Assembly (NCBI GenBank): GCA_965645245.1
Contig: OZ287075.1
Coordinates: 744,001-808,000, forward strand
DNA from: Massalongia carnosa
Taxonomy: Eukaryota
Direction: 5' to 3'
Length of the DNA: 64,000 bases
Translations under genes and position numbers: made by a program
The notes under the pieces: model-generated
Told to the model about the DNA's origin: nothing
What the model saw: only the letters and a program-made list of their open reading frames with translations
The model's database searches: none
Shown here: in pieces, positions 8,190-55,700 of the stretch
Layout of the letters: each line of letters opens with the position of its first letter
Position numbering within the stretch: the stretch's first letter is position 1

Positions 8190-8326
8190 ATTGGTATTTG
8201 TTCAATAGACTTTGTATTTGGGACTCGTAGTTTATTGCATTTTCGTCTAGAAACTTCGCGAATTTATCTAAATCGGCTTTATTGCAGTTTTATTTATTCG
8301 ATAATGCGGTTGCGTGTGACGTCAAG
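8190..8326 (-). mobile_element. Short LINE A1 ORF2 fragment
   Basis: Matches ~46497-46634 of the intact copy (ttgttcaatagactttgtatttgggactcg...gcgtgtgacgtcaag). Confidence 0.85.
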
Positions 8327-10107: not shown

Positions 10108-10408
10108 TTCGCTGTCATGATTTTATAAATCTTCGATATTATCGTCTATAAATGTATTTTTTGTGTACATTGCTGACACAAATGCATCGCATTTGTCATC
10201 AAACTGAAGATTTAGCTTGTTTTCAAGTAGAATCGGGGGTAATTTTTCGGATTATGCGCGGTTTAGTATATATATACGCCGTAAATACATCTTTATTTGC
10301 TGCATTTTCTAGAAAAGTCAACCAGGTTTGTTGTTTTGCTTTTCGAATTGAATAAAAATACTCGATTCGACTATGTTTAAACGTTATTCTCGACGATGTC
10401 TACACATG
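10108..10408 (-). mobile_element. LINE A2 ORF2 internal fragment
   Basis: Reverse complement of the A2 segment seen at ~5190-5515 (KYTKPRI...AMYTKN region). Confidence 0.8.
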
Positions 10409-14895: not shown

Positions 14896-14979
14896 GCTCA
14901 AATCGACTCTATGAAGTTGCGTGATCAAATTAACGCGCTATTAAAAAACGCAAATTTAAACATCATCGTCAATACTGTT

Positions 14980-25615: not shown

Positions 25616-25616
25616 C

Positions 25617-25627
25617 AATCTTCAGAC
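25617..25627 (+). promoter_or_regulatory. Putative self-priming primer-binding site
   Basis: aatcttcagac is the exact reverse complement of gtctgaagatt in the LTR (25557-25567); there is no TGG tRNA-type PBS. Confidence 0.8.
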
Positions 25628-25660
25628 CTACAATCAGAATCATTAGGCTAATCAGAAAAC

Positions 25661-31319: not shown

Positions 31320-31492
31320 TGTCAGGGTCCTGAGGTCACCTGACATCAGACTAGCATCGATTAGGTAATGTGCCGAGGAACCGACTTTTCAGGGGTTATA
31401 TAGAACTCCGCCCGAGTAAAGCTTTTAGACTTCGTCTGAAGATTTTGGTGTAGAACTAGGCTATTGAAATTGAACTCGTTTTATCCCTCACA
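31320..31492 (+). repeat. 3' LTR of the chromovirus
   Basis: Identical to the 5' LTR; preceded by a purine tract at 31307-31319. Confidence 0.97.
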
Positions 31493-35651: not shown

Positions 35652-36271
35652 TTTTTTATTTTATTTATTCATTAAGTGTATTCAACTTAAGGTTATGACA
35701 CTAAACTATTTTAGGATATTTTTCTATAATACAAATAAATCAACCCTTTATAACCCATCTATGTAACCCGAAAAACTTGTCGCGAAAATGACTACACTAG
35801 AACAAACAAACGCGCTCTCGAGAGCGCACAGCGAAAGGAGGGAATGTTTACACGTAAAGATCAAGAAGTATCTTGATCGAGTGTGCACCGTTGGTGACCC
35901 GGAGGCGTTGCAGTTGCCGAGAAACTCAGCGGAAATTTTGCAAGCGCAAAATCTAGTCGATGACAAAGTTGCAGAAACTCCCAACAACATAGGTGACACA
36001 TTACAGGCAATCCAACAATCATTGACACGCATAGAGCGCAATGAGACCACTCCTCGCAGCTATGCCGCTGCTGCTACAAGGCAAGGCCGAGATGAGCCCG
36101 CACTCCCAAAGAACCAAAACGTCAAGCCTCAACAGGCCCGCAAAGACAAAGCACCCACACCAAGAGAAGCGCGACGTGCCCGGGAAATGACCGTTCACAT
36201 CACGGAGGATGCGGACAAGGAAAAAATAAAGCTAATGCCAACCAAGGAGTTAGTAGAAACACTACAAAATG

Positions 36272-37212
36272 TGTCACGATTCTACACGGCACGACCTCGG
36301 CACTCGGCACCGCCTAGGGCAATCGTAGATGGAACACGCAGGCGATTTCGATTTCGTTCCCGCAGCTGCTAGAAGGTTCCATGACGACTATACCACATGG
36401 GTACTAGCGCTGTAGAGGATATATAGGGGCAGGTTCTGGTTGTCGATTGTCTTTTTCCTTCTTCATCTTTATTGCATTCGTTTCTAGTGTCCCTATGACT
36501 TGTCTCTAGGTAGATCATAACATTACAATAAAGATCGTCTTCATCTATTATCCTACGTGAGGGATGTAAAAGAACTCACCGAATCGAGGACTGAAGAAAG
36601 AACGACCCTTTCATTAGGCAAGTCGTACGAACCAGAGCCAGAACCACCAGAACCAGAAGGCCGCCATCCCTAAAGCGTGGCACCCAGAACCAGAACCAGA
36701 ACCAGAACCACCAGACACCAGACACCAGAAACCAGACAGCAGGCACCAGACACCAGACACCAGACCCCAGACACCAAAGTACTGACTGCACCGAAATTAC
36801 CGGAAAATCGACGAAAGAGCTTGGAAAGACACGGGAAACCTTGGCAAAGAATCGGAAGCACTTCAGCTAATGAACCAGTTTCACCGCTGACTACTGACTG
36901 CCTGCACCGCTTGCACCGCCTAGTTCGCGCTCAGGTGATCGCGATTTAAAGCGAAGGGTAGTGTCACGATTCTACACGGCACGACCTCAGCACTCGGCAC
37001 CGCCTAGGGCAATCGTAGATGGAACACGCAGGCGCTTTCGATTTCGTTCCCGCAGCTGCTAGAAGGTTCCATGACGACTATACCACATGGGTACTAGCGC
37101 TGTAGAGGATATATAGGGGCAGGTTCTGGTTGTCGATTGTCTTTTTCCTTCTTCATCTTTATTGTATTCGTTTCTAGTGTCCCTATGACTTGTCTCTAGG
37201 TAGATCATAACA
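36272..37212 (+). mobile_element. Non-autonomous miniature LTR retrotransposon (TRIM-like, 941 bp)
   Basis: 251-bp LTRs at 36272-36522 and 36962-37212 (3 differences), TG...CA; TSD AAATG at 36267-36271 / 37213-37217; 439-bp non-coding interior; PPT gcgaagggtag. Confidence 0.95.
36628..36777 (+). repeat. (CCAGAA)n/(CCAGACA)n minisatellite inside the miniature LTR element
   Basis: Directly visible degenerate 6-7-bp tandem units. Confidence 0.85.
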
Positions 37213-38217
37213 AAATGGAGCTGAAGGAATAAGGGGAGTGTCGCGTTTGTTAAACGGCGACATCAGGATTCACGCAGAGTCATTGGAAGCAAAGAAGACC
37301 CTGCAGGAGAAGACCGATTGGACCCGCATGGTGGCCGCCTCAGCTGCGGTGCACACCCGCACCTTCACCGTAAGAGCGAATGGAATCAGGGTGGAAAACA
37401 TCAAATTGGCCAATCAATCAACAGCCATCACCTACCTTCAGGCCGCTAACGCACGCCTGCACCCTAACCTGAAGATCGTCAAAGTAGCCTGGTCAATCAA
37501 GGCCATTAGAGAGAAAAAAGCGTACTCGACGCTTCATATAGAGGTCGCCACCGCCGAGATGGCTAACCGGCTCATCACCGAGGGCCTAATGGAAAGCTAC
37601 GAAATAAAGGACTGCGAGCGCTTCACACGTGGTTGCACCATGACTCAATGCTTCAACTGCCAAAAATACGGACACATCGGTAGAGTATGCCGCAATCCCG
37701 CCGCCTGTGGTCACTGCGCCGGTGGACATCAAAGCAAAGAATGTAATCTGGAGACAACGGGGGAATACCGCCGTTGCGCCGTATGCGGAGAGAAAGGACA
37801 CGAAGCATGGTCCACAGCATGCAAAGTCAGATTAGCTGAAAATCGAAAAACTGAAATAGCAATGCAATACCGCGCCCCCCTCTATGCAATTGAATCACAG
37901 CCGCCCTCATTTCATTTTCAACTTAAACGAGAGTCGACACCCATAGTCACACAAACGGACGAAATTCCGTCAACGTGGAAGATAGTAAACGGCAAAAAAA
38001 GAAAAATACACAACGCTACGCCCTCATCCGGCACACCCCCGGGCCCTCATCGGGGAGACGACGCACCTACCTGGGCTAATATAGGCATCATGAATCCTGA
38101 AAATATGGTAAAAACCTTAGCAAAACCAGTGCTGGGTAGGCCTCGTGCAGATTCCGTAGCATTAACGGCAGGAACTCAGGTCACATCGAACACAGCGGCC
38201 GAAACGATGGAAATCCT

Positions 38218-41200
38218 ATGAGGGACACAAAATCCCTCTCTATATTGCAGTATAATGTCAGAAATGACAGAGTGAGTACTATTATACCCCTCTTAGCAGA
38301 CACAAACACCCAGGACTATGATATTATTGCAATACAGGAACCGTGGCGCAATCCATCCTCCCCCACATCGCTTAGTTCTCATCAAAGCGGCTTTCACCTC
38401 CTATACCGCCCAGGAGGTGACACCAGAGTGTGCATTTATGTCAACGACCTAATAGACACTGACAGCTGGGAGGTGGAATTCACCTCGGCCGACATGTGCA
38501 CTTTGAAAATAAAGACCTACACCGAAGGCGTTATGGAAACAATTCACGTCTATAATGTGTATAATCCCTCTCCCGCTTCCTATTCATCCACTGACAGTCC
38601 CACGACCTTACCGGCGGCTCGGAGCATGCTTACCGCCGATGCGCATCACATACTACTTGGAGATTTCAACCTGCATCATCCCTTTTGGAATGGTCCCTCA
38701 AGACCCACACAACACGCTGCTGCTGATCAATTACTGGAAATAATCGATGATCATAATCTTTCGTTGACACTGCCGAAAGGCACCGTAACATGGGAAGCAA
38801 GAAACACGTCTAGCACGATAGATTTGGTTTTCATTTCAAAATACCTAGTCGAATGACTCGAACACTGCATGTCCAGACCAGAATTGAATCAATCGTCCGA
38901 TCACGTGCCGATATCAACCCGCATCCTACTCGGAAGCGAGCCGCAACCGAAAATCAAACTCAGAGCATGGAAACATCTAAACCTGGAAAAATTAAGGGAG
39001 GCCGAACGACACGCCCCTATACCGGAGTCTCCCCGTACCACTGCCGAGATTGATGCGTACACGGAATCGATTCAAAAATTTCTACAAAATGTCATCAACG
39101 AAGCAGTTCCATGGGCAAAATCTAGCGAATATGCTCAGCCATTCTGGACAGAAGAATGCAGCATTGCAACCAAAGCCACACGGAAACTACGCCGCATATG
39201 GTCCAGCACGTTAGACCTAACGGACTGGTCTAACTATATGAAATCCAATGATAAAAAACAGAAAATCATTCAAAAGGTAAAGAGAATAAACTTTCGTCAA
39301 GAAATCAATAAGGCCACCGAAACGCCTCAGGGACTATGGCGGCTAGCGAAATGGGCCAAAGACAAAAGGCATCAATCTAGAGAAGTATCCAAAATGCCGA
39401 TTTTAAAATTCAATAACCAAGTAGCAGACACGTTTGACCAAAAAGCCGAAATGCTGAAAGATGTCTTCTTTCCCGCACCACCACCGGCCGACCTAAGCGA
39501 CATAGAAGGATCCTTCTATCCTACATCGCCGCACTGCCCAATAACTATCACCAATTCAGAAGTATCGACGGCCCTGAGTCGGCTCAAGTCCGATAAGGCA
39601 CCGGGCCCAGACGGCATATCTAACAGAATACTCAAAGCATGCAGCGAAATACTTGTCGAACTACTAACACCTCTGTTTCAGGCGTGCGTCACACACTCGT
39701 AGCACCCGCGGGCCTTCAAAATGGCAAACACAATAGCGCTGAAAAAAATAGGTAAAGGAGACTATAGCACGCCGAAAGCCTACCGACCAATTGCACTGCT
39801 CAACACGCTCAGTAAAGTTATTGAATCCATCATTGGATCGAAATTAACCTATCTGGCGGAAAAACACCGGCTCCTACCCGATAGACAGATGGGAGCAAGG
39901 AAGGGCAGATCCACAGAGTCAGCACTGGAACTGCTAACTGAACAGGTTCACACGATTTGGGGACAGGGAAAAGACAAAGTAGCCAAACTGCTAAGCATGG
40001 ACGTCGCCGGCGCGTTCGATACGGTATCACATCAACGACTAACACACAACCTACGGAAAAGAAAAATTCCAAAATGGATCACCGACTGGTTAAACAGCTT
40101 TCTGAGCGATCGAAGCACCACTTTAGCAATAAATCGAAAAGTCACTGGGCGGTTTGCGGTAAGAACGGGTATCCCACAGGGCTCTCCCCTGGCATCCATT
40201 CTTTACCTATTTTACAATGCATATCTATTGGAAATATGTGATCGACCAGGCAAAAACACAAGTGCCATAGGATTCGTAGACGACGCAAACATTTTGGCAT
40301 ATGGAAAAAGCACCAAGGAAAACTGCAAAACTCTAGAGGCAATACACAGACAATGTGAGACGTGGGCTTCCCGGCACGGGTCCGTATTCGATCCGACGAA
40401 GTACGAACTCATACACTTGTCTAGAAATCCCAAAAGATTCAACATGACTGCATCCATCAATATTGCTAGCACCGAAATTGATCCTAAAACGGACATCAGA
40501 GTATTGGGCCTACAAATCGAAACCAAATTGAAATGGGGACCGCACGTTCGCAAAACGCAAGAGAAAATGGTCAAACAATCCATGGCATTGACAAAAATTT
40601 CCACATCATCCTGGGGTACCAACTTCGCCAAGGCAAGGCAGGTATACAGTGCCGTGGTGCGTCCGGCCATGACATATGGATCGACCGTATGGCACATGCC
40701 CAAAGAAGTCAAAAAGTCAAAAACGTCAACGAGCAAGCTCTCCGTCATGCAAAACAATTGCCTTCGCACCATAGCCGGTGCCTTTAATGCCACTCCCATC
40801 TCAGTACTAGAAGCAGAGACATTCATAGCGCCCATAGACACGAATCTCGACATGCTACAAGCACAGGCAAGGCACCGGCTCCGAGCCGGAGGCCAATTGA
40901 AGATCATCTCCTCCGCATGCAACAAAATAGCTGACAAACTTCGAGGCAAGGCAGGTCGCAAACGACTTCAAAAGCCCACCCCGGGAGAGCTAAAACACAT
41001 CTGGGCCAAAAGCCTACTGATCGACTCAAAAATAGTTCAGCCACCAAAGGCACACCCACCATGGTTCGAAGTTTACCCGGCGTGGCACCGCGAAGCTACC
41101 GTTGCGGCAACGGCCCGACACAAGCAGATGCAAACAATCAAAACACGACAAATAAAGGTCTGGAACGACTCGTGGTGCGCATATCAAAATCGCGTCATCG

Positions 41201-41571
41201 AACCCTCCATAGCACAATCAGTCCCACTGACCAAAAAACGGCTGAAAATACACACGCAGCTAAAAAAGGCAGAAAGCGCTCTAACAACTGAAATCCGCAT
41301 TTGCAAAATCGGGTTAGCTGACTTCCTCTACAAGCGACGGGTGCCCTCCGTCACCTCACCGGCCTGTTCATGTGGCTGGCACAAACAAAATCCAGAACAT
41401 GTAATCATGTTCTGCAGACTTATTCACAATAGAGAACAGATGTTTCGCGCCACCGGCACGAGCGACTATCAGCAGCTGACCAAATCATCAAAAATTCTGA
41501 AGATACTAACTGCTTGGCTAATGAAAACAGGTTTATTGTATCAATTCTCACTAGCATCAACATTATTGTAA
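38218..41571 (+). pseudogene. LINE B ORF2 (AP endonuclease, RT, CCHC; no RNase H) with two in-frame stops
   Basis: ORFs 38218-38856, 38869-39702 and 39721-41571 share one frame; IQEPW, GDFN, SDH, GIPQGSP, FVDD and CSCG...HVIMFC motifs; ATGA overlap with the ORF1 stop. Confidence 0.93.
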
Positions 41572-43360
41572 AATCAACAATAGTTGAACCTTTCTTTCTT
41601 TCTTCTCTTTTCACAAGGCATTACAGTTTTTTTTATTTATTTATTCATTAAGTGTATTCAACCTAAGGTTATGACACTAAACTATTTTAGGATATGTTTC
41701 TATATTACAAATAAATCAACCCTTTATAACCCATCTATGTATTGTCAATTTTTCCCTATTTTTACTCGGTGTTAGTAACAACCTATAGTAATCGAAGAAT
41801 ATCGATTTTAAAATTTGTCTTTGTAAGTTCGTGAATGTTTCAGCAGAAATCGTTTCTGATTTTACTGTTCGATCTCTCCCCAACCTCCAGTTTCGAAAAT
41901 CTCGTCATCAAGCTGATCTAGTATCCATTTTCTTTTCGCGATTTTGTTATTGACAATGAATTTAATCAAAATGTCATTTCCCATTTTTGAATTAAACAAC
42001 ATATTCAAATTGATCGTAGTATCGATATTTTGTATCATGTTTTGAATTTCATCGAAATAGTGAATGCAATTCAATAACAAGTGTTCTGGCGTTTGTCGTT
42101 GATTGTATCGATTTGTGCATTTTGACGAATTATAATCTTTCAATCGCTGTAAATATGATCGAAAATAGCCGTGTCCGAATTTTAATTGCATAATAGTAGC
42201 AAATATCAATTTGGAACAGTTATTTGATAAATAATAAAATCTCGATATGCCAGGTTTCATTTCGAATTTCTCGTAGTATTTGCCTCTTGATTTGCATTGT
42301 TGCCATTGATTCGTCTATTTAGTTAGCATATTTTGATTTATTTGATCTTTTACATAATCAAATGTAATCGCCGAGGACTCGACTAGGATTTGATTATGGC
42401 CCGTCTTTGCTATATTGTCTGTAATTTAGTTTTCGGTAATATTCGAATGACTCGGAACCCATTGCAAAATCACCTGAAAATTGCTTTCAAATAAGAGTTT
42501 TGCGAGCTTTCGAATTTGTCTGGCGAAAATATGATTTGTCAAGTTCTGAATTTCGTTTATCGCGCTTATACTATCAGAAAAAATCCAAATCGTTTTTTCT
42601 AAGTTCGATAAAATATTAGTATTCGACAATTTATAGACCCATTTCATTGCTTGTAAAATCGCATGCAGTTCAACATTTTTAATGTTGACTGTTTGCTTAA
42701 TTTCCAGCTTTCCGAAATCGTATGATACTTGATCAGACAATCTTTTTCGATAAATCGATTAAAATTATTGATAATATTACTCCAATTCCTTATAATTGGC
42801 GCAAATGTGACTGCAGACGTTGCAAATTCGATTTTCGATCCATCTGTATAAAGTAAAACTCGGGATTTATCGGAGTTCATTGATTTAATTTTGGATAAGG
42901 TAGAATAATAACTTGATTTAGCAGATTCCTTTGTATTTTCGATTTGAAATTTGATTTTGCAAGGCGATTTCCATGGTTTAATAAAATGACTTGATTGTTC
43001 AAATTCATCAGTTTTGTGAACTATGTCGGAAACGGAATGAAGAACGCGAATAAGCTGACTAGGATGTCGTTTATTTGTTTATTTGTCGTCTTCGTTCCAT
43101 TCAGCATATTTGTTGTTCCATTTTTTTTTTATTTTTTTATTTATTCATTAAGTGTATTCAACCTAAGGTTATGACACTAAACTATTTTAAGATATGGTTT
43201 TATTTTACAAATAAAGCAACCCTTTATAACCCAACTATCTATCGTCAATATTGCCCCGTTTTTACTCCGTGTTAGTAACAACCTTTAGTAATCGAAATAT
43301 CGATTTTACAATTTGTTTTTGTAAAGCTCGTAAATATTCCAGCATAAATCATTTCTAATT

Positions 43361-46300
43361 TTACTGTTCGATCTCTCCCCAACCTCCCGTTTCGATATTT
43401 TCGTCATCGAGCTGACCTAGCATCCATTTTCTAGTCGCGATTTTGTTATCAACAATAAATTTAATCAAAATATTATTTCCGATCCTAGTATTAAACAACA
43501 TTTTTAAAGTAATTGTGGTATCGATATTTTGTTTCATGTTTAGGATTTCATTTGAATAATGTATGCAATTCATCAATAAGTGTTCTGGCGTTTGACGTTC
43601 GTTGCAGCGCCCTGTGCATTTTGACGAATTATAATCTTTCAATCGGTGCAGATATGATCGAAAATAACCGTGTCCGAATTTCATTTGCATAATAGTCGCA
43701 AATATTAATTTCGAACAATTATTCGACAGATAATAAAAACTCGATTTGCCCGGCTGCATTTCGAATTTCTCATAGTATTTGCCTTTTGACTTGCATTGTT
43801 GCCATTGATTCGCCCATGTGGCTAACATATTTCGATTTATTTGACCCTTTACATAATCAAATGTTATTATCGAAGACTCGACTAGGATTCGACTATGTCC
43901 CGCTTTTGCTGCTTTATCTGCAATTTCATTTTCGACGATTTTCGAATGACTAGGAATCCATTGTAGAACCACCTGATAATTGTTTCCGAATAAGCATTTC
44001 GAGAATTTTCGAATTTGTTTTGAGTAAGTATGATTTGTCAAGTTCTGAATTTCGTTTATCGCGTTTATGCTATCGGAAAAAATCCAAATCGTTTTTTCCA
44101 AATTGAAGAGATTATTCGCAATTGTCAATTTGTATGCCCATTTTATTGCTTGTAGTATCGCATAGAGTTCGGCGTTTTTAATGCTTGACTGTTTGTTTAA
44201 TTTCCAGCTTTTCGAAATCGTATGATGTTTGAGGAGACAATCTTTTTCGATAAAACGATTGAAGTTATCGGTGAAATTGTTCCAATTTCGCATAATTGGT
44301 GCAAATGTGACAGCGGAAGTTGAAAACTCGGTTTTTGATCCATCGGTATAGAGTAACATTCGCGATTTATCGGCGTTTATTGATTGGATTTTTGATAAAG
44401 TCGAATAATAACTTGACTTTGCTGTTTCTTTGGATCTTTCGATTTGGAACTTGATTTTACAAGACGGCTTCCATGGTTTGATGAAATTATTTACTGATTC
44501 GAATTCATCAGTTTTGTGAACTATATCCGAAACGGAATGAAGAATACGGATAAGCTGACTAGGATGAGGTTTACTCGATTTTTTCTCGTCTTCGTTCCAT
44601 TCAGCATATCTGTTGTTCCATAAACTAGTGTCAAAACCGATGTTTTCGAATTTCACAGAATAGGTACTGGGAATTCTTTGACAAATAGGATTATTTTCGG
44701 CAATCTTCAATAATCGAATTGCGTATATTTGATTTTTCATCAACAATCGTAGCTTGGCTGGTAAAATATGCGATTCAATTTCCATCGCCTGAACAGGCGT
44801 GGTTTTGAATGTGCCTAAAATCTTTCGAATCATTCGATTTTGCAGATTCTGAAATAGCTTTTCATATTTCTTTTGACCGTTATACCAGATTTCTGAGCCA
44901 TAGTCCGAAATAGGAATAATACATGACAGATAGAGCTGTCTGCATGCAGTTGGCTTTAGTCCCCATTCAGACTTCATCAAATTTTGAATTGCGAAAAACG
45001 ATCGATTTGCAGAAGCAATTCGCGTTTCGACGTGTTTTTTGTAATTTAGTTTTCGGTCTAACCAGACTCCTAACCATTTGACAGAATTTTTCGGTTCTAG
45101 TATTGTCCCGTTTGGTAATTGCACTTTGTCTTTTGATGCATTTCTTGACTTTTCGAAGTGAATCAACTCAGATTTGTCGTCATCAAATTTGACATTATTC
45201 GTTGCGGCCCAATCAAAAGCTGTTTTGACGATAATTTCGATTTCTTTGCAATTCTGTGTGGCAGTTTTATTTTCGACATATATTGCAACATCGTCTATAA
45301 AGCTAGGTGAATGAGCATTGAATTTCATTCGTATTTTCGGGAATAAGTAACGAATATAAATCAGAAATAGAATTGGCGAAATAGGTGAACCTTGTGGAAT
45401 TCCAGATTCGATATAGTACGTTTTGCTTTTGTGTTCATCGAATATCAAATTGATCGATCGTTTTGTCATAAAATGCTTGACCCATTGAATAACTATGCGA
45501 GATAAATGCAGCTTTTTCATAACATTTAGCAATTGATTAATCGAAACAAAGTCAAATGCTCCTTTGACATCGAGTAATAGACATGATAAAACGTTTTTGT
45601 TTCGGTTTGCGATTTCGATATCATGAACTACGTTCATTACCGCATCGATTGCAGAATGATTTTTCCGTCCGCCCATTTGTTCGGTATCTAACAAGCTCGA
45701 ATTTTCGCCGAGGTAGGCTAGTCGATTAGCAACTATTTTCTCCGCAATTTTACCAAGACAATTCAGTAAGGTAATAATTCGATATGATTTTGGCAGCGAG
45801 TAGTCTGGTTTATTAGGTTTTTTTAAAACAGCACCGAGTCCTGTTCGCCAACATAACGGGTGATAACCGATTTGTATAAACTTAGAATAAATAGTAAAAA
45901 ACACGTTTTTCAATTGTTGAAACGATTTTTGAATTATTGTGAAATTGATTGCATCAGGTCCACATGATTTCTTTGGATTAAACAAACTAATCGCATTTTG
46001 CAATTCATTTTCGGTTAAATTCGGCCAATTGTTGTCATTTTCGCTGTCTTGATTCGTTAAATCTTCAATTTTATCATCCGTGAACGGGTTTTTTGTGTAC
46101 ATTGCTGACACAAACGCATCACATTTGTGATCGAATTGAACATTTAACTTATTTTCATATTGAATAGGTGGTATTTTTTCGAACATGCGCGGTTTAGTGT
46201 ATTTATAAGCTGTAAATACGTCTTTATTCGCTGAGTTTTCAAGGAAAGCCAACCAAGTTTGCTGTTTCGCTTTTCGAATTGCATGAAAGTACTCGATTCG

Positions 46301-47374
46301 ACTATGTCTAAATGTTTGATGACTAAAATAGGACGGATTATTCTTCCATTCTCGACGATGTCTGCACATGATTTTTCGAAGTCCGGATAAATCTTGCGAC
46401 CACCAATTTTTCGATTTTGCGCATATTTTTGTCTTCGGAATAAACATTTCAGCCGCGTTTTTGATAACGTTTTGCAAATATAACGCTGATTCATCAAATT
46501 GATAATTGTTCAATAGACTTTGTATTTGGGACTCGTAGTTTACTGCATTTTCGTCTAGAAACTTCGCGAATTTATCCCAATCGGCTTTATTGCAGTTGTA
46601 TTTATTCGATAATGCGGTTGCGTGTGACGTCAAGTTCTTGAAAGACGCGATAAGTTCAAATCGAATAACTTCATGATCTGAACCCGTGACTGCGTTTTCA
46701 TCGATTGACCAATTTGTAATTGCGTTTTCGATTTTAGAATTTGCAAATGTTAAATCAATAATAGATGAAGAGTTTCCTGAATGAGCAAAAAATGTATATA
46801 GATCAGGCGTGTTTATCAAACTACATTTGTTTAATTTTAACCAATTGACTAGATTTTCTGATCGAATTGCATTTTGAATCTTCGAATTCCACCAGCTATG
46901 ATGTGCATTGAAATCTCCACATATGACAAATTGATCAGTTGATATAGGTTGATATTTAACTAAAAGTCGATCGATTGTATATGTTTCTCGATCGTTTAGA
47001 CTTTTTTCATTGTAAAGGTTAAAGATCTGCACTTTTCGAACTTCATCAATTGTAATTTCGATAATTTGCAGATCAGTATCGTTTATAAGATCCGTTCTAG
47101 GCGTGCATTGTAATTTTGGATTGCATTTTGTAACGAATATAGCTACTCTCGGCCGATAAGTCGCTATTTTCGGCATAATACATGTGAATGACGGATGGGA
47201 AATTGTTTTTTGATCTCGCGTCCATGGTTCCTGAAATAAAACAATATCAACACGATTTAATACTGCATATTCCAGACACGAAATCATTGCATTCGTTGAC
47301 TTTGCACAATTATGTTGAATAAATTTGACATTTTGTGTATTTTCGATATTTGTCAACGAATGTTGTCCCGCCAT
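43361..47374 (-). CDS. LINE ORF2 polyprotein: AP endonuclease, reverse transcriptase, RNase H, CCHC finger (1337 aa)
   Basis: FQEPW, GDFNAHH, IDLTF, GSDH; YRIITLLN, GIPQGSPISP, FIDD; YTDGS, AEL, FSDS, WIPSH, NEIADKAAK; C...QTPEHLLMNC. Confidence 0.97.
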   Translation of the reverse strand: MAGQHSLTNIENTQNVKFIQHNCAKSTNAMISCLEYAVLNRVDIVLFQEPWTRDQKTISHPSFTCIMPKIATYRPRVAIFVTKCNPKLQCTPRTDLINDTDLQIIEITIDEVRKVQIFNLYNEKSLNDRETYTIDRLLVKYQPISTDQFVICGDFNAHHSWWNSKIQNAIRSENLVNWLKLNKCSLINTPDLYTFFAHSGNSSSIIDLTFANSKIENAITNWSIDENAVTGSDHEVIRFELIASFKNLTSHATALSNKYNCNKADWDKFAKFLDENAVNYESQIQSLLNNYQFDESALYLQNVIKNAAEMFIPKTKICAKSKNWWSQDLSGLRKIMCRHRREWKNNPSYFSHQTFRHSRIEYFHAIRKAKQQTWLAFLENSANKDVFTAYKYTKPRMFEKIPPIQYENKLNVQFDHKCDAFVSAMYTKNPFTDDKIEDLTNQDSENDNNWPNLTENELQNAISLFNPKKSCGPDAINFTIIQKSFQQLKNVFFTIYSKFIQIGYHPLCWRTGLGAVLKKPNKPDYSLPKSYRIITLLNCLGKIAEKIVANRLAYLGENSSLLDTEQMGGRKNHSAIDAVMNVVHDIEIANRNKNVLSCLLLDVKGAFDFVSINQLLNVMKKLHLSRIVIQWVKHFMTKRSINLIFDEHKSKTYYIESGIPQGSPISPILFLIYIRYLFPKIRMKFNAHSPSFIDDVAIYVENKTATQNCKEIEIIVKTAFDWAATNNVKFDDDKSELIHFEKSRNASKDKVQLPNGTILEPKNSVKWLGVWLDRKLNYKKHVETRIASANRSFFAIQNLMKSEWGLKPTACRQLYLSCIIPISDYGSEIWYNGQKKYEKLFQNLQNRMIRKILGTFKTTPVQAMEIESHILPAKLRLLMKNQIYAIRLLKIAENNPICQRIPSTYSVKFENIGFDTSLWNNRYAEWNEDEKKSSKPHPSQLIRILHSVSDIVHKTDEFESVNNFIKPWKPSCKIKFQIERSKETAKSSYYSTLSKIQSINADKSRMLLYTDGSKTEFSTSAVTFAPIMRNWNNFTDNFNRFIEKDCLLKHHTISKSWKLNKQSSIKNAELYAILQAIKWAYKLTIANNLFNLEKTIWIFSDSINAINEIQNLTNHTYSKQIRKFSKCLFGNNYQVVLQWIPSHSKIVENEIADKAAKAGHSRILVESSIITFDYVKGQINRNMLATWANQWQQCKSKGKYYEKFEMQPGKSSFYYLSNNCSKLIFATIMQMKFGHGYFRSYLHRLKDYNSSKCTGRCNERQTPEHLLMNCIHYSNEILNMKQNIDTTITLKMLFNTRIGNNILIKFIVDNKIATRKWMLGQLDDENIETGGWGEIEQ

Positions 47375-48957
47375 TAACCAAGCATTAATTCATCATTCGA
47401 TTTTCTAGGATTTAGCGAGATAAACATTTCGCAACCTATATCGTTCGATTGATGATTTTTGTTGCAATTGACGCATTTCAGAATTGCATGTGCGCATGCG
47501 ATTTTAGACTTGCATGTTGTGCATTCATGATTATGCGTTTCATGACTTTGTGCGCATATATTGCATTTTGCCGGACTTTTGCATTGATAATGCTTATGTC
47601 CAAATTTCTGACAATTAATACATTGCGTGTTTGGACGAACGGAAGCAAATATTTCCGTGTCACAATGTCTACCCGCGATATTCACGCCTCTTAACGCGTT
47701 TGACGCTTGATTTTGATTATTGAAAGTCAAAACTACCGACGACGTGACTTTGTTTTGACGATCCCGAGCAAGCCATCTTGGTAAATCGCATAGTTGCATA
47801 TTCGAATTGTATTTTTCGATTTCGGTTTGCAAATATTGCATGTTATTATCGAATAACGAGATATTTACTCCGTGTGCTATGACTTTAAACCAGGATTCTT
47901 CTTTTCGAATACTTTGTGATTCGAAAATGTGTTCCCATGAAGATTTATTTTTCAACAATTCTTCGGCATTGTTGTCAGGGCTAGTGGTGAGAACGATATT
48001 CTGACCGGTTTTGGACTTTTCAACAGTATTGACGATGATGTTTAAATTTGCGTTTTTTAATAGCGCGTTAATTTGATCACGCAACTTCATAGAGTCGATT
48101 TGAGCGTCAGGATTTTTCGGTGAAATCACGAGTCGTCTGGCCTTGATTGCATCAAATCGATCGACTTTGTTCGAATTATAATTCGAACTTTTCCTTTGAA
48201 TAGTAGTCCAATTTTCGGAGTTTTCGGTTGCTTTTCCAAGCATTTGACTCCATGTACCGGTTGTGCTAACATTGTTACCAGAGACCCCGGTAGCTCCTTT
48301 GCGAATGGTCTGATTTTCGATAATTGAATTTTCGTTCAATTTAACAACAGGTTTTTGGATTTTTGGACCATTCTGTAGTGGAGTCGTTTGTTGTTGTGAC
48401 GTTTTGGATGAAAGATGACTAGTTTGATCAAGTACTATGCCCATTTTATAGTTAATCATATCTAAGGATGTTTGTAAATTGATTGATTTTTTCGAAATCA
48501 ACGAATTAACGTTGTCAATTACGATAGCCGTTTGTGGATTTTGGTCCAGTACAAATGATTGCAATAATGCTTTTTTGGCCGACTTTAGAAGCTCAATTGA
48601 ATTTGTCCGATTGATCGCTTCTTGGCTATCTCTCGAATGTTCGTCAAATGTGCGTCTTTTATTTCGTTTGATTGGTGGGCTTGATCCAATGTTTAAGTTC
48701 AATGAAGGCATCGGCAAGATAGTGGAAAATGGACCCGATGGGAATTTCGTTGCCTTTGGTGTCGGTGATGACGGGGCTGATGCATATTCGCGAGTTTGAT
48801 CCATAGGTTCAAGACGGGGAGAGCTCCCTATCAACGCCACCGGAGATGGTCCGGGGGAGTGTCGGGGGGGGGCCGGGTAATGGGTCGATAGGGGGGCGGG
48901 ACCGGCTGGGGGTGGTGTCCTTGGTATATTCCGGCGGTTCATTACCGCGTTAAACAT
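47374..48957 (-). CDS. LINE ORF1 gag-like nucleic-acid-binding protein (527 aa)
   Basis: Pro-rich N-terminus and C-terminal CCHC knuckles (CINCQKFGH, CNICAQSH, CVNCNKNH); TAATG overlap with ORF2. Confidence 0.95.
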   Translation of the reverse strand: MFNAVMNRRNIPRTPPPAGPAPLSTHYPAPPRHSPGPSPVALIGSSPRLEPMDQTREYASAPSSPTPKATKFPSGPFSTILPMPSLNLNIGSSPPIKRNKRRTFDEHSRDSQEAINRTNSIELLKSAKKALLQSFVLDQNPQTAIVIDNVNSLISKKSINLQTSLDMINYKMGIVLDQTSHLSSKTSQQQTTPLQNGPKIQKPVVKLNENSIIENQTIRKGATGVSGNNVSTTGTWSQMLGKATENSENWTTIQRKSSNYNSNKVDRFDAIKARRLVISPKNPDAQIDSMKLRDQINALLKNANLNIIVNTVEKSKTGQNIVLTTSPDNNAEELLKNKSSWEHIFESQSIRKEESWFKVIAHGVNISLFDNNMQYLQTEIEKYNSNMQLCDLPRWLARDRQNKVTSSVVLTFNNQNQASNALRGVNIAGRHCDTEIFASVRPNTQCINCQKFGHKHYQCKSPAKCNICAQSHETHNHECTTCKSKIACAHAILKCVNCNKNHQSNDIGCEMFISLNPRKSNDELMLG

Positions 48958-49886
48958 GGATTTATAAATAAATCGATGTTGCCTTTGCTATATCCCCTTT
49001 ATCGCCACCAAATAATTTATTCTGACGTTCCCCGGACGTAATAGTCAGAATAGAGAGTTTTTACACCGATTTACTGGTCTAAAGACTCTTGCTTTCCAAA
49101 CCCTATTTATTTGACAATAACAAGTCAAATAAATCCTAGTCGAGTTAAAATAGACCGTTCCTCGCTTAGGCAATAGATCTTATTTAACTCTTTACCTTGA
49201 CACTACGATATATGGAATATAATAAGAATTTTACGATCGAACAGAAAAATTTTTTTTTTTTTTTTTTTGAAAAATGTTTTTGATCCAGAAATAAAAATCA
49301 AGTACAATGAGAGAGAGGAGACTTCCTATTCTGGTTAGCCTGAAACAGGGCCTTTGGTTTAACCCTATTTCAGACGTTTCTCCCCTTCGTTTCAGCAGAT
49401 TGTTGGTCGGCAGTTCAACGAAAATCGAAAAAACCCAAAATGGAATAGTGTATACGGTACCGGTAACCTTAAATTTCAAATAAACACCAAGAAGTTTTGT
49501 TGTCTCGAGAACAGGTTGTACAGTTACGCGACAGTGATGATATTTTGTAGATAATTTTTGTGATAATAGATGAGATCTATGCGACAATTAAACCGAAGAA
49601 ATATCGAAAATCGAGCGATTTTTGACGTTGTTGTTGGTGTTTTTGTGTTTTGTAGAATTTTTGGACGCGCTTTTTGGTGAAGGGGCGGACAGACCGCGAG
49701 GAAAACTCTGCAGGAGCAGTGGAAGAGCTCTCCTGTACCCAATTCTGATGGGTTTTAGCTTCTGGTAGGCTCAAATGAATGAGAAGAATGAGGAGAATAA
49801 GTTGGGAAAGTTTCAGTATATCAAAATATAGGGTACCGATGTTTTGGGGGTTGGCTTATTGCTGATGAGTTCAGATTACTGTGCAC
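48958..49886 (-). promoter_or_regulatory. Long structured AUG-free 5' leader of LINE A1
   Basis: No ATG on the sense strand by manual scan; stems with compensatory changes against the A2 leader at 58524-59435. Confidence 0.75.
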
Positions 49887-50969
49887 TTTGTTGTTCCATA
49901 AACTTGTGTCAAAACCGATATTTTCGAATTTTATCGAATATGTGTTTGGAATTCTTTGACAAATAGGGTTATTTTCGCCAATCTTCAATAATCGAATTGC
50001 GTATTTTTGATTTTGCATTAATAATCGAAGTTTAACTGGTAAAACATGTGATTCAATTTCCATCGCCTGAACAGGTGTGGTTTTTAAAGTTCCTAAAATC
50101 TTTCGAATCATTTGATTTTGTAGGTTCTGAAATAGTTTTTCATATTTCTTTTGACCATTATACCAAATTTCTGAGCCGTAGTCCGAAATAGGATTAATGC
50201 AAGACATATAGAGCTGTCTGCATGCGGTCGGTTTCAGACCCCATTCGGATTTCATCAAATTCGGAATTGCAAAAAACGATCGATTCGCAGAAGAGATCCG
50301 CGTTTCGACGTGTTTTTTGAAATTTAGTTTTCGGTCTAACCAGACGCCCAACCATTTGACTACATTTTTCGGTTCTAGTACTGTCCCGTTTGGTAATTCC
50401 AATGTGTCTTTCGATACATTTCTTGTCTTTTCGAAGTGAATCAGCTCGGATTTATCGTCATCAAATTTGACATTATTCGATGCGGCCCAATCAAAGGCCG
50501 TTTTGACTATGATTTCGATTTCTTTGCAATTCTGTTTTGCAGTTTTATTTTCGACATATATTGCAACATCGTCAATAAAACTGGGGGAAAGTGCATTGAA
50601 TTCATTCGTATTTTCGGAAACAAGTGACGAATCTAAATCAGAAATAGAATAGGCGAGATTGGTGAGCCTTGTGGAATTCCTGATTCGATATAATATATTT
50701 TGCTTAAATTTTCATCAAATATCAAATTGATCGATCGTTTTGTCATAAAATGCTTGACCCATTGAATTATTATGCGAGATAATTTCAGCTTTTTCATGAC
50801 ATTTAGCAGTTGAGTAATCGAGACAAAGTCAAATGCGCCTTCGACATCGAGTAATAAACATGATAAGACGTTTTTATTTCTATTTGCAATTTCAATATCA
50901 TGAACAACGTTCATTACTGCGTCAATTGCAGAATGATTTTTGCGTCTGCGCATCTGTTCGATATCGAGC

Positions 50970-52791
50970 TAAGAATGATAAAATAGAGTTGACATCTCCT
51001 TCGTGAAGTCTCTATCCCAGTTTTCGTTCATCTCACTGGTGCGTTTTACGGCCTAAGATTATTGATGAATTCTACGATTGGGGTGAACGACGTCCCTTTC
51101 GCCCAGGTCAAACCCAGTTTACTCCATAAGCATATATCAAGGGCAAGTCTAGCCGTTGCCCATGCGCCGGCGAACCGACGCGGTCTCGTTACGAGCGAGA
51201 TAGACATTCCCTGCTCTATATACACCGACTTGCGCATACTGTCCTCTCGGGCTATGCAGACGGTCTCCGTACGGTGGCCGCCATTGCATACCACGCCTCA
51301 GGGGTTTTTTACGCCCACTTCGCGTTATTCATAAAGGTCTCCCGTTTATGAACCGACCATATCTCGCAGGAATTTCGACCACTATGCTCCTGACCAGGCA
51401 GTATAGTATCGATTTTCCATCCCTATTAACCAAAAAGAGTCGAGGACAACTCGGAGGGGTGCTCGTTTGAAATTCGTCTATTAGCTAAGGGCCTAGACTG
51501 TTATCAATTAACGGGTTCCTCGTATATTGCCCTCTTCTTGTCCCAAGGGTGTCCTATTTGATGACTAGGTTGCCTCCACCATCCCCGGTACGACTCCAGT
51601 TCGGGCTGTGTTGCTCAAGGTAGCCATCAATCGGATGGTTTTCATAACCCAAATTCCTTGTATCGTGTAGGGTGTGACCCTACACTATGTGTCTATATGT
51701 TTTATTTCTTTCAGCCGGAGGGCTCCGAGTTGTAGACGAAGGAGACCCGTGTGACAGACATAGCTGACCCGTGTCGTACGTCTTTAGCTCTCAGCCGATA
51801 ACTGCATGAAAGGACTTGAACCTTTAAGAGTATGAATGAACATTGTTAACGAGGTCTATGTAAATCTTATTTACGAGGTCTTCGAGAACAATATTAACGA
51901 AGTTCCGCTGAACTCTTTTCATTCGTTTTGTGATCCATCGAGGTCTACCCGTGTCAAATCCACACCATGCCCGTGTCAAAATGCATCATTTTCAGCTGAT
52001 GACTGCTAGAAAGGACTTGAACCTCTAAAAATATGTACGCCGATATTAACGGGGTGCAGATCTGTCTTAACGAGCCGCCGCAGAACCCCCTTCACAGGGA
52101 CGTGTTATTGATTTGTGACTGTGTTTTTTGTGACTGTGTGTTTTTTGACTGTGTGTTTGTGACTGTATGTTTGTGACGGTGTGTTTTGTGACTGTGTGCT
52201 TTGTATAACGTGTGATTGATGACTATGTGTTTTGTGACTCTGTGTTTTCCTCGATTTTATTTAACACGCCGGGCCTATTAAATGGGATATTGTTTTTCTG
52301 CTCCGAGATGGAGTTTTCTTGAGGTGACAGCATTCGCCCCGGTGCCTTTACGCGTTCTGTTGATCCCAGCTGATGACTGCATGGGGAGACTTGAACTCTC
52401 AGGAGCTAGAACGCGTGTCGATTGTGCCCGGGTAGGGGATGATGCGGCTCCTTTGGTCCACATCTTCTTCCAGCTGATGACTGCATGAAGGGACTTGAAC
52501 TCTTAGAAGCATGGTGCAGGGACGCGGGCATTCTACCACCCGGCGGTTGGCCTTCGTATCCTCTTCCGTACGTACGTCTGCGACGCGTGTGAACGCGTTA
52601 AATTAGCATTGTTTTATTGCGAAAAGATAGGAGCAAATCTATGTTTGTCGGTCGCTCCACGGTGAGGCCTTTGGCGTCTCCGTGGTAAGAACCGATGGTG
52701 TAGAAGGAGGAGGACCGATGGTGTAGAAGGAGGAGGACCGATGGTGTAGAAGGAGGAGGACCGATGGTATAGAAGGAGGAGGACCGATGGT
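50970..52791 (-). repeat. Unclassified ~1.8-kb non-coding repeat, copy 2 (passenger element)
   Basis: Homologous to 8328-10107; four 22-bp monomers at its right end; 30-nt repeats at 51792, 51993, 52367 and 52471; lies inside the TSD of a LINE A2 insertion. Confidence 0.87.
52692..52791 (-). repeat. Tandem 22-bp monomers (accatcggtcctcctccttctac-type), about 4.5 units
   Basis: accgatggtgtagaaggaggagg-type unit repeated on the plus strand; about 2 units in copy 1 (10063-10107). Confidence 0.9.
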
Positions 52792-55700
52792 AAGGCATTA
52801 CAGTTCCCACACGTCTTTTGCACCGCGTCTCCCGCCCGACGTCGACCCGTAGTCACATCGGAAGGGTATCAAGGGACATAGTTTTTACACCTGTGAAAGG
52901 TTTTCCATGTAACATAACTTAGATAGCTTTGCCCGCATGGGCCGGCCTACGGCCGGTATCATATCGGAGTATGAATACATCATCATCATCATCATCATAA
53001 CCCATCTATGTATCGTCAATTTTCCCCCGTTTATACTCCGTTTTAGTAACAACCTATAGTAATCGAGAAATTATCGATTTTACAATTTGTCTTAGTAAGT
53101 TCGTAAATGTTTCAACATAAATCATTTCTGATTTTACTGTTCGATCTCTCCCCAGCCTACCGTTTCGACAATTTCGTCATCAAGCTGACCTAGTATCCAT
53201 TTTCTAGTCGCGATTTTGTTATTGACAATGAATTTAATTAAAATGTCATTTCCAATTTTTGTATTAAACAAAATATTCAAGTTGATAGTAGTATCGACAT
53301 TTTGTTTCATGTTTTGAATTTCATCGAAATAGTGAATGCAATTCAATAACAAGTGTTCTGGCGTTTGTCGTTGATTGCATCTATTTGTGCATTTTGACGA
53401 ATTATAATCTTTCAATCGATGTAAATATGATCGAAAATAACCGTGTCCGAATTTTAATTGCATAATAGTGGCAAATATCAATTTGGAGCAGTTGTTTGAT
53501 AAATAATAAAAATTCGATATGCCAGTTTGCATTTCGAATTTCTCATAGTATTTGCCTTTCGATTTGCATTGTTGCCATTGATTCGTCCATGTAGTTAGCA
53601 TATTTTGATTTATTTAATCTTTTACATAGTCAAATCTTATCACCGAGGGCTAGACTAGGATTCGATTATGTCCCGTCTTTGCTGTTTTGTCTGCAATTTC
53701 GTTTTCGGTAATTTTCGAATGACTCGGAATCCATTGCAAAATCACCTGATAATTGCTTTCAAATAGGCGTTTTGCGAGCTTTCGAATTTGTCTTGCGAAA
53801 ATATGATTTGTCAAGTTCTTAATTTCGTTTATCGCCTTTATGCTATCAGAAAAAATCCAAATCGTTTTTCTAAATTCGATAAAATATTAGTATTCGACAA
53901 TTTATAGACCTATTTCATGCCTTGTAAAATCGCATGCAGTTCAACATTTTTAATGCTTGACTGTTTGCTTAATTTCCAGCTTTTCGAAATCATATGATAC
54001 TTGATCAGACAATCTTTTTCGATAAATCGATCAAAATTATTGATAATATTATTCCAATTCCGCAAAATTGGTGCAAATGTGACTGCAGACGTTGCAAATT
54101 CGATTTTTGATCCATCCGTATAAAGTAAAACTCGGGATTTATCGGAGTCCATTGATTGAATTTTTGATAAGGTCGAATAATAACTTGATTTTGCACATTC
54201 TTTTGTATTTTCGATTTGAAATTCGATTTTGCATGACGATTTCCAAGGTTTAATGAAATGATTTAATTGTTCAAATTCATCAGTTTTGTGAACTATGTCA
54301 GAAACGGAATAAAGAACGCGAATAAGCTGACTAAGGTATCGTTTATTTTTCTGTTTTTCATCTTCGTTCCATTCGGCATATTTATTTTTCCATAAGCTAG
54401 TGTCAAAACCGATGTTTTCATATTTTATCGAATATGTATTTGGAATTCTTTGACAAATTGGATTATTTTCGGCAATCTTCAATAATTGAATTGCGTATTT
54501 TTGATTTTTCATTAATAATCGAAGTTTGACTGGTAAAACATTTGATTCAATTTCCATCGACTGAACAGGTGTGGTTTTGAAAGTTCCTAAAATTTTCCGA
54601 ATCATTCGATTTTGCAAATTCTGAAATAGTTTTTCATATTTCTTTTGCCCATTATACCAAATTTCTGAATCGTAGTCCGAAATAGGAACATTGCATGACA
54701 AATAGAGCTGTCTGCATGCGGTCGGGTTCAGACCCCATTCGGATTTCATCAAATTCTGAATTGCAAAAAATGATCGATTCGCAGAAGAGATTCGCGTTTC
54801 GACGTGTTTTTTGAAATTTAGTTTTCGGTCTAGCCAGACGCCCAACCATTTGACTACATTTTTCGGTTCTAGTATTGTCCCGTTTGGTAATTCCAATGTG
54901 TCTTTCGATACATTTCTTGTCTTTTCGAAGTGAATCAGCTCGGATTTATCGTCATCAAATTTGACATTATTCGATGCGGCCCAATCAAAAGCTGTTTTGA
55001 CTATGATTTCGATTTCTTTGCAATTTTGTTTTGCAGTTTTATTTTCGACATATATTGCAACATCGTCAATAAAATTGGGAGAATGTGAATTAAATTTCAT
55101 TTGTATTTTCGGAAACAAATGACGAATGTAAATCAGAAATAGAATAGGCAATATTGGTGAACCTTGTGGAATTCCTGATTCGACAAAATATGTTTAACTT
55201 TTATTTTCATCGAATATCAAATTGATCGATCGTTTTGTCATGAAATGCTTAACCCATTGAATTATTATGCGAGATAATTTCAGCTTTTTCATGACATTTA
55301 GCAGTTGATTAATCGAGACAAAGTCAAATGCGCCTATGACATCGAGTAATAAACAGGATAAAACGTTTTTATTTCGATTCGCAATTTCGATAACATGAAC
55401 GAGGTTCATTACTGCGTCAATTGCAGAATGATTTTTGCGTCCGCCCATCTGTTCGATATCTAGTAAATTCGAATTTTCGCCGAAGTAGGCTAGTCGATTT
55501 GCAACGATTTTCTCAGTCATTTTACAAAGACAATTTAGTAATGTGATAATTCGATATGCTTTTGGTAGCGAATAGCCTGATATATTAGGTTTTTTCAGAA
55601 CTGCACCGAGTCCTGTCCGCCAGCATAACGGGTGATAACCGATTCGAATGAATTTCGAATAAATCATGAAAAACACGTTTTTCAACGATTGAAACGATTT

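Follow-up and report, generated by a model that had tools for sequence, protein, structure and literature searches.

A probable MINE-type chimeric retroelement in Massalongia carnosa: a structured non-coding passenger fused to truncated LINEs

The chimeric retroelements called MINE were reportedly first described by Fudal et al. in 2005. The accepted model for such chimeras is that the reverse transcriptase (RT) of a long interspersed nuclear element (LINE) leaves the LINE template and carries on at the 3′ end of a second RNA. In Magnaporthe grisea/oryzae the second RNA is WEIRD, a 1.1-kb non-coding RNA, copied at full length and followed by 230-5461 nt from the 3′ part of the LINE MGL (Gogvadze et al. 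2007, PMC2104539). That paper describes 33 chimeras with direct repeats of 10-20 bp and 28 joint sites, and reports neither solo copies of WEIRD nor relatives in other genomes; it gives a consensus for the MGL joints (GCC before the joint, A or U after it) (PMC2104539). We take this consensus as a property of the MGL joints and not as a mark of the architecture. For chimeras of U6 RNA with the LINE L1, RNA ligation by RtcB before reverse transcription has reportedly been shown (PMC6789731). Here we analyse a stretch of 64,000 nucleotides from Massalongia carnosa (assembly GCA_965645245.1, contig OZ287075.1, positions 744,001 to 808,000 of the forward strand), called the window throughout and numbered from its first letter, in which a 1.8-kb non-coding sequence at 50970-52791, the passenger, is fused to a 5′-truncated LINE. 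The architecture is that of Magnaporthe MINE, and we favour, with moderate confidence, the explanation that the unit is a fungal chimeric retroelement of the MINE type, joined by an RT template switch and inserted in one step.

The first-pass annotation of this locus, made from the letters alone, had compared it with U6-L1 chimeras and with R2 template jumping, but MINE and WEIRD of Magnaporthe are a closer and more specific precedent (PMC2104539). We found no report of such chimeras outside Magnaporthe in the literature searched. The chimera type is already known; the RNA family to which the passenger belongs, and its structure, appear to be undescribed.

Passenger and LINE inserted as one unit

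The 14-bp target-site duplication (TSD) AAGGCATTACAGTT has exactly two matches in the window, at 41615-41628 and 52792-52805, where 0.01 would be expected by chance. The empty target site is seen in other copies of LINE B, a second LINE of the window. The passenger was listed in 14 runs, from four coded organisms and a lichen metagenome, and four runs, all as contigs, were aligned on window 50500-53100. In contigs of runs X1 and X4 the letters that immediately precede 52792 are ...CTTTTCAC, and this sequence equals window 41585-41614. Because the TSD stands at both ends and the empty site is seen in X1 and X4, 41629-52791 is a single insertion into the 3′ untranslated region (UTR) of LINE B, which bears out the proposal that the TSD encloses one insertion. 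That passenger and LINE were inserted as a unit by LINE machinery is, in our view, practically certain. The parts of the locus are as follows.

35767..41614, plus strand: host element LINE B, GC-rich, with gag-like CCHC, endonuclease and RT frames (Pfam; self-BLAST to 60094-64000)
41615..41628, no strand: left TSD copy, in the LINE B 3′ UTR (exact match, empty site)
41629..43121, minus strand: LINE A2, 3′ part, with its A-rich tail at 41629-41650 (90-94% to the 3′ ends of other A2 copies by self-BLAST)
43122..49886, minus strand: nested full-length LINE A1, with 5′ UTR, open reading frame (ORF) 1 at 48987-47374 and ORF2 at 47389-43361 (self-BLAST, Pfam, own TSD)
49887..50968, minus strand: LINE A2 from inside the RT domain, the 5′-truncated end (self-BLAST, 93-95% to three other A2 copies)
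52792..52805, no strand: right TSD copy (exact match)

Read on the minus strand, the passenger (52791 to 50970) is followed by A2 sequence (50968 to 49887), the nested A1 element, the rest of A2 (43121 to 41629) and the A-rich tail. Passenger and LINE part share one orientation, the LINE tail lies at the far end, and the LINE 3′ part totals 2.6 kb. The annotation had read this strand as passenger plus A2 from the middle of the RT domain to the tail; order and truncation stand, but the 9.3 kb beyond the passenger are not one LINE, since a full-length A1 is nested in them. By comparison with five uninterrupted LINE copies, the joint lies at about aa 566 of ORF2, within the RT domain, and a 296-aa frame in the A2 piece at 49887-50968 carries the C-terminal part of RVT_1 (Pfam).

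This arrangement bears on the idea that the passenger is an independent element of DNA or long terminal repeat (LTR) type (a Helitron, a solo LTR or a fragment of ribosomal DNA spacer) that lies near LINEs by chance. The window is a dense LINE graveyard in which LINE flanks would be expected for anything, but one TSD encloses passenger and LINE both here and at five other loci described below, LINE sequence flanks the passenger on one side only and in one orientation (8/8 flanks with ORF matches), the passenger has no terminal inverted or direct repeats of its own, and Rfam finds no ribosomal RNA in it. We therefore regard an independent element as scarcely credible. Just as the annotation had stated, we saw no tail, TSD or ORF belonging to the passenger itself, whose longest frame, 113 codons, is on the antisense strand; nor did we see terminal inverted repeats or a match to a known RNA or transposable-element end, findings it had named as contrary to its reading.

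The window holds a second passenger copy with LINE sequence on both sides.

8190..8326, minus strand: A1-like LINE piece of 137 bp, joined to the 3′ end of copy 2 (95.6% to A1, 85-90% to A2 copies)
8328..10107, minus strand: passenger copy 2 (94.3% identical to copy 1 over 1781 columns)
10108..10408, minus strand: sense LINE fragment, an A2-like part of ORF2, directly 5′ of copy 2 (89% to 5514-5239)

The LINE piece of copy 2 (8326 to 8190, equivalent to 46634 to 46498 of the A1 copy) is joined at about aa 252 of ORF2. A rearrangement cuts it off at 8188/8189, where a LINE of opposite orientation takes over; no TSD could be read at this rearranged locus. The fragment at 10108..10408 may be the target LINE or may stem from a second switch. 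The annotation had described copy 2 as ending at the same base as copy 1 and joined elsewhere, to A1. The different partner and position are upheld; the identity of the end is less exact, because the passenger closes with ...CATTCTTA plus G in copy 1 and T replaces that G in copy 2. The base after the passenger is C in the five window-family joints that can be read there (copies 1 and 2 and contigs from X3, X4 and X7), and this shared C means that the passenger/LINE boundary is good to 1-2 nt.

Contigs supply further joints of the window family. The alignments from X3, X4 and X7 all begin at 50968, and 50968/50970 is a break point beyond which contigs continue differently. In the X7 contig, the 30 nt after the passenger equal window 48789-48818 exactly, which is ORF1 of LINE A1, and the joint lies 14 nt upstream of the in-frame ATG of MDQTREY; this form would be a near-full-length LINE headed by the passenger, and possibly one that has gained a new 5′ UTR and promoter. 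In the X3 contig 82 letters separate the end of the passenger from the LINE position to which copy 1 is joined, which would put its joint ~80 nt further 5′ than that of copy 1 if those letters are LINE sequence. The X4 contigs add two more flanks at the boundary, unlike each other and unplaced. The window family thus has four placed joints: near the start of ORF1 (X7), at about aa 252 and aa 566 of ORF2, and, conditionally, that of X3. Run X1 contributed 6844 aligned pieces; among the variant positions listed, 7-48 contigs cover the passenger and 26-59 the LINE part, and although contig depth is not equal to copy number, these counts mark the passenger as a high-copy repeat.

The window is nearly all retrotransposons and eukaryotic in character (self-comparison, Pfam). 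LINE family A is AT-rich and comprises subfamilies A1 and A2, which are ~83% identical to each other (self-BLAST), as against 94% for the two passenger copies. Its ORF1 has CCHC knuckles and its ORF2 endonuclease, RT and RNase H domains (Pfam). A protein search with its ORF2 gave named relatives from fungi (Lasallia, Sclerotinia, Pleurotus, Ceratobasidium), and the family is probably Tad1/I-like. With one of the passenger-bearing runs labelled as a lichen metagenome, these relatives make the host probably a lichen-associated ascomycete. The nested A1 element has open frames (ORF1 of 537 aa; ORF2 of 1342 aa with Exo_endo_phos, RVT_1 and RNase_H by Pfam) and its own 13-bp TSD, TTTGTTGTTCCAT, at 43109-43121 and 49887-49899. 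It is a later insertion, outside the chimera proper, and since it has a TSD and is 98% identical to the copy at 14979-19881 (self-BLAST), family A was active after the chimera had formed. LINE B resumes at 52806-52999 and terminates in (CAT)n; its 5′ region contains an internal direct repeat of 252 bp, 98.8% identical (36271-36522 and 36961-37212). Inside a LINE A copy sits a Ty3/gypsy element (25443-31494) whose frames encode gag, protease-RT-RNase H and integrase. The direct repeats at its two ends, 175 bp each (25443-25617 and 31320-31494), are 100% identical, and the element looks like a very young insertion.

The passenger RNA and its relatives

The passenger can be divided into three parts.

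50969..51440, minus strand: structured 3′ domain, ~470-480 nt, with 13 predicted helices (12-row alignment, RNAalifold, controls, model R1)
51441..52690, minus strand: passenger middle (motif and repeat scans; motifs recur in related families)
52691..52791, minus strand: passenger 5′ end, a 23-bp tandem repeat that abuts the TSD (98% matches)

Relatives were sought in fungal metagenome contigs. A scan with the 24-nt passenger end gave no match, and one with the internal motif CAGCTGATGACTGC-N7-GACTTGAAC gave 39 loci, many of which align to the passenger at 67-84% over four blocks; for the related passengers overall the identity is 67-85%. Twelve sequences were aligned over their last ~470-530 nt, with a mean column identity of 61% and no variation in more than 100 columns. 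The consensus structure predicted by RNAalifold has 13 helices and 85 pairs, with compensatory changes in 44/85 pairs. When the pairing partners were slid by 1-3 columns, the share of cells paired fell from the observed 94.5% to 34-48%, and the number of pairs changed on both sides from 44 to 8-13; among 500 shuffles, none reached the observed value for four of five measures, and two did so for the fifth. The passenger thus ends in a conserved, highly structured RNA domain.

R1, a covariance model built on helices 1-7, matches 25/39 loci at 137-208 bits. In the window it matches only the passenger copies, with cores at 51226-51413 in copy 1 (181.6 bits; the RNA 3′ end, ...CATTCTTAG, is at 50969/50970) and at 8584-8771 in copy 2 (176.5 bits). 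The next best score in the window is 13 bits, so the 5′ UTRs of LINE A and LINE B lack the passenger domain. The sense 3′ end was compared in 20 rows (both window copies plus 18 rows from other loci) that represent six or more diverged lineages: each ends in a homologous ...TTRG, beyond which the rows are unlike, and the last passenger base is G in 11/12 aligned lineage rows.

Several identities for this RNA were considered and set aside. A coding RNA was rejected: besides the shortness of the longest frame, tblastx matches run across all frames and both strands with similar scores, and a conservation that shows no preference for frame or strand is non-coding. The annotation had suggested a search of Rfam. 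Neither the window nor any of 12 loci had a match to Rfam 15 at the gathering score; with the threshold relaxed to E<=1, L024 and eight short loci still gave nothing, and window 50800-53000 gave a single chance-level match (SpR10, 19.7 bits against a gathering score of 50). Telomerase RNA, considered for its length and precise end, was discarded since no conserved CCCTAA-type template was seen by eye and Rfam gave no match. No group I or group II intron model matched, and the order of the passenger helices is presumably unlike that of group I.

The middle of the passenger is built of repeated motifs. GTTCAAGTC-N7-GCAGTCATCAGCTG occurs four times (at 51792, 51993, 52367 and 52471, plus strand), together with CGTTAA and GACACGGG motifs and a 15-bp tandem array at 52112-52248, and the 23-bp tandem repeat at the 5′ end has 4.4 units in copy 1 and ~2 in copy 2. 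Three short motifs are kept across lineages, CGTTAATA, GGTTCAAGTCC...GCAGTCATCAGCTG and GACACGGGC (window 51792-52500; L007 5260-6035). The second of these we take to resemble a tRNA T-arm, or an RNA polymerase III B box plus E-box; ARAGORN found no tRNA.

The most informative relative is P2, a passenger that forms a repeat of ~1.96 kb in one group of large contigs and whose copies are 90-97% alike. The 3′ end of P2 is fixed in all copies (position 5123 of L024), and its 5′ start, CCTCGCGGTGTC, is fixed in eight loci. Among the related loci at large, 8/16 flanks past the boundary have tblastn matches to the LINE proteins of the window, 8/8 of them on the sense strand; the matches to ORF2 begin 10-58 nt past the boundary and one to ORF1, in L014, at 147 nt. 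The joints placed in this way fall in ORF1 (L014) and at about residues 488, 634, 723, 728, 790 and 832 of ORF2. DNA homology puts six of the remaining eight nearer the 3′ end of the same LINEs, and two short ones are unplaced. TSDs surround whole units in L015 (17 bp), L024 (11 bp), L001 (13 bp), L027 (~9-10 bp) and L022 (10 bp with one mismatch), were sought and not found for L037 and L014, and accompany units with A-rich or AT-rich LINE tails. The LINE parts of individual copies range in length from 0.66 kb to nearly full length, L014 being a near-full-length LINE headed by the passenger.

In all, P2 shows nine different joints among ten distinct insertions, with TSDs readable in five. For this count L001 and L033 are one locus, L016 and L021 overlapping fetches, and L002 and L032, which have identical statistics, were taken as one; the one shared joint is that of L001 and L027, which have different insertion sites. 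The annotation had expected many copies with one 3′ end, fused to varied LINE positions inside one TSD, and the four placed joints of the window family and the nine of P2 agree with that picture. The LINE partners of P2 belong to three subfamilies that are ~70% alike or not mutually alignable. Because passengers 90-97% alike are joined to LINEs so unlike, fusion must have recurred, drawing on a homogeneous passenger source, and we hold with high confidence that chimera formation is recurrent and not a single ancestral fusion. The RNA family to which the passenger belongs is conserved across several lineages of fungi, and in each it is fused to the RNase-H-bearing LINE that is resident there.

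The P2 data also speak to the possibility that a LINE A subfamily has the passenger as its 5′ UTR and promoter, the truncated forms being internal deletions. Promoter-like repeated modules and 5′ tandem repeats are features of LINE 5′ UTRs, and the X7 contig and L014 are near-full-length LINEs that the passenger heads. Deletions, however, would not keep one passenger base at no fewer than four LINE positions in the window family and nine in P2, and passengers 90-97% alike head LINE subfamilies that are only 70-83% alike. Moreover, the full-length A1 and A2 copies in the window carry a different 5′ UTR, homologous between A1 and A2 and without the domain. Self-BLAST and the R1 scan rule out the passenger as the own 5′ UTR of LINE A or B, and we judge the subfamily version very improbable.

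Some further features of P2 are recorded here. A second, diverged and expanded R1 match, of 24-71 bits, lies ~1 kb upstream of the 3′ domain (sites include L024 6297-6634, L035 883-1220 and L022 5605-5917); the window passenger has only one match, and the sequences suggest an internal duplication of the structured domain in P2. A single extra G stands between TSD and passenger start in L024 (7072-7084) and none in L015 (7072-7088); the extra G would fit copying of a cap, although one case proves nothing. The P2 units in L001, L024, L027, L016 and L037 are islands of 45-57% GC in DNA of 14-27% GC, and several copies differ by G-to-A and C-to-T changes, such as repeat-induced point mutation would give.

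One relative has a different setting. The passenger homologue at 2733-4200 of L030 (a locus also represented by L004 and L028) is situated downstream of a gene for a Zn2Cys6 fungal transcription factor, in DNA of normal GC content. No RT frame was found in the 2.7 kb downstream of it and no flanking direct repeat of 11 bp or more, whilst a short purine-rich repeat ~270 nt downstream may represent the tail of a LINE. The homologue is a solo copy or else a chimera whose LINE tail is very short.

How the passenger and the LINE are joined

For the favoured explanation, the following steps are envisaged. The LINE RT would start at the LINE 3′ end by target-primed reverse transcription, leave the LINE template inside ORF2 (or ORF1), continue on the 3′ end of a free passenger RNA (...TTAG) and copy this toward its 5′ end. 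Insertion of the hybrid in one event would give one A-rich tail and one 14-bp TSD. The repeats in the middle of the passenger would act as a promoter, and the 3′ domain would make or present the RNA's own 3′ end. While unit insertion and recurrence rest on the loci themselves, on the template switch as the joining step our opinion is about evenly divided.

Several observations weigh against a simple template switch from LINE to passenger. The first concerns the source of the passenger: no LINE-free source gene was identified, the sole candidate being the L030/L004 locus, which may be solo or short-tailed, and none of the 14 runs is on record as RNA. Second, to judge from run X1 the passenger is much commoner than chance captures of the U6-L1 sort, an abundance that fits a specialised process, though not necessarily template jumping. 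Third, the 3′-terminal hexamer of the passenger (TCTTAG, CCTTGG) is complementary, including wobble pairs, to an internal conserved CYRRGG (alignment columns 529-534) in 9/12 rows, and such pairing would disfavour a free acceptor end. RNAalifold pairs this CYRRGG with columns 421-425 instead, so that the model may allow an alternative pairing at the 3′ end of the RNA. The fourth concerns the bases at the joints. Where an intact LINE of the same subfamily (88-98% identical) was available for comparison, the P2 joint follows AG in 6/6 cases (L001, L002, L022, L024, L031 and L037; intact references L014, L015, L016 and L031), with L015, L016, L009, L039, L025 and L010 left out of the tally as their reference LINEs are too diverged. 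The frequency of AG in those LINEs is 0.09-0.105, which makes the chance of 6/6 ~1e-6. Plain end-to-end template jumping does not predict such a rule, which looks like the use of a 3′ splice site. Finally, the Magnaporthe consensus was found at 0/9 joints; the first LINE base is C in 7/9 (4/6 in P2, 3/3 in the window family). Microhomology by wobble pairing as the reason for the A before the joint was ruled out, the chimeras keeping the passenger G and not the LINE A in 5/6.

The AG rule brings in splicing at the RNA level, in which the passenger end (...TTRG) would be a 5′ splice site, joined in cis (out of a read-through or master transcript) or in trans to cryptic acceptors ending in AG within LINE RNA before retrotransposition, much as in spliced L1 insertions. 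Besides the 6/6 joints, this is favoured by TACTAAC 26 nt upstream of one P2 joint and CTAAC upstream of two, by the terminal G kept in 11/12 lineage rows, and by the X7 joint, placed before the ORF1 ATG as a functional leader exon would sit. The three window-family joints with an intact LINE for comparison tell another story: TA, AA and CT precede the joint, each followed by C, so that AG is found in 0/3. GT follows the passenger end in 0/20 aligned rows, with no unspliced donor seen; only 3/6 acceptors are YAG; the branch-like motifs are, by our own rough estimate, no commoner than chance; and the 5′ UTRs of LINE A and B lack the passenger domain. Splicing as the joining step seems unlikely to us.

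Ligation of RNA has also been considered. Here a passenger end with a 2′,3′-cyclic phosphate, left by self-cleavage or processing, would be joined by an enzyme of tRNA-ligase type to LINE RNA fragments with a 5′-OH. The precise passenger end, independent of the sequence downstream and beside a large conserved structured domain, is in keeping with this, as is the rarity with which chimeras re-amplify as units (one shared joint in ten insertions), which fits cutting of chimera transcripts at the passenger end. The reported joining of U6 to L1 by RtcB offers a precedent (PMC6789731). Searches of the window copy, L024 and eight short loci at E<=1, however, gave no known self-cleaving ribozyme, and ligation does not predict the AG preference either. 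We consider it improbable, and more so than splicing.

Returning to the MINE-type explanation, the chimeras carry a LINE 3′ end, yet they seldom re-amplify with their joint. This rarity, together with the missing solo copy, leads us to suspect that the 3′ domain directs formation of the passenger end from any transcript. We also lean towards seeing the passenger as a dedicated rider of LINEs rather than a housekeeping RNA caught by accident. A wider and decidedly tentative reading would be that there is an unrecognised, widely conserved family of 1-2-kb structured fungal RNAs living only as LINE riders, with their own promoter modules and a 13-helix domain that produces a precise 3′ end irrespective of the downstream sequence. 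These RNAs would acquire a fresh LINE 3′ part in each generation by joining at the RNA level (attack or splicing at AG, or ligation) or by a directed RT jump, would now and then land just before ORF1, as in the X7 form, and so provide LINE lineages with a new 5′ UTR and promoter, and would include WEIRD as a member. If so, the RNA would gain its LINE part anew, unlike a short interspersed nuclear element (SINE) with an inherited tail.

The manner of joining and the identity of the RNA now become testable, as there is a covariance model, a defined 3′ end and a joint rule (AG before the joint, C after it), and the rule can separate template jumping from RNA-level joining. The X7 form indicates a possible route by which LINEs acquire new 5′ UTRs. 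For the annotation of fungal repeats, such units should be treated as chimeras and not as new LINE subfamilies.

Comparison with known systems

SINEs with a LINE-derived tail, for example Mg-SINE, likewise depend on LINE machinery, priming from a LINE 3′ end, and have a promoter-like 5′ part. A SINE family, however, has one fixed junction to a short LINE tail, whereas here the LINE part varies by copy. The spliced integrated retrotransposed elements of L1 (SpIREs) combine a fixed upstream end with varied internal LINE positions, and AG before the LINE side in 6/6 P2 joints recalls them. They differ in that the upstream part here is not the LINE's own 5′ UTR, no donor GT is seen in 20 rows, and AG precedes 0/3 joints of the window family.

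The U6/L1 chimeras and other mammalian pseudogenes of small nuclear RNA (snRNA) with L1 resemble our elements in the precise 3′ end of a non-polyadenylated RNA, the 5′-truncated LINE, the single TSD and the LINE tail, and template switching or RNA ligation has reportedly been invoked for them (PMC6789731). The passenger described here is long, matches no known snRNA or Rfam family and appears far more frequent relative to its LINE, and its partners are fungal RNase-H-bearing LINEs, not L1.

The likeness to MINE is closest. The differences are of degree and detail: the passenger measures 1.8-2.0 kb and WEIRD 1.1 kb; GCC followed by A or U is found at 0/9 joints, with AG before the joint in P2 and C as the first LINE base in 7/9; and the passenger belongs to an RNA family with covarying structure in several lineages, whereas WEIRD was reported without relatives. 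Two published 20-nt primers for WEIRD (PMC3978060), which are primers only and not the full RNA, have no match in the passenger family with up to five mismatches. In both systems a full-length non-coding RNA of ~1-2 kb with a constant 3′ end stands on the 5′ side of a variable, 5′-truncated resident LINE, direct repeats of 10-20 bp surround the whole, joint sites are many and few are shared, and no solo copy of the RNA is seen. For nearly twenty years MINE and WEIRD have been an oddity of one fungus; the same anatomy is now found in another fungal lineage.

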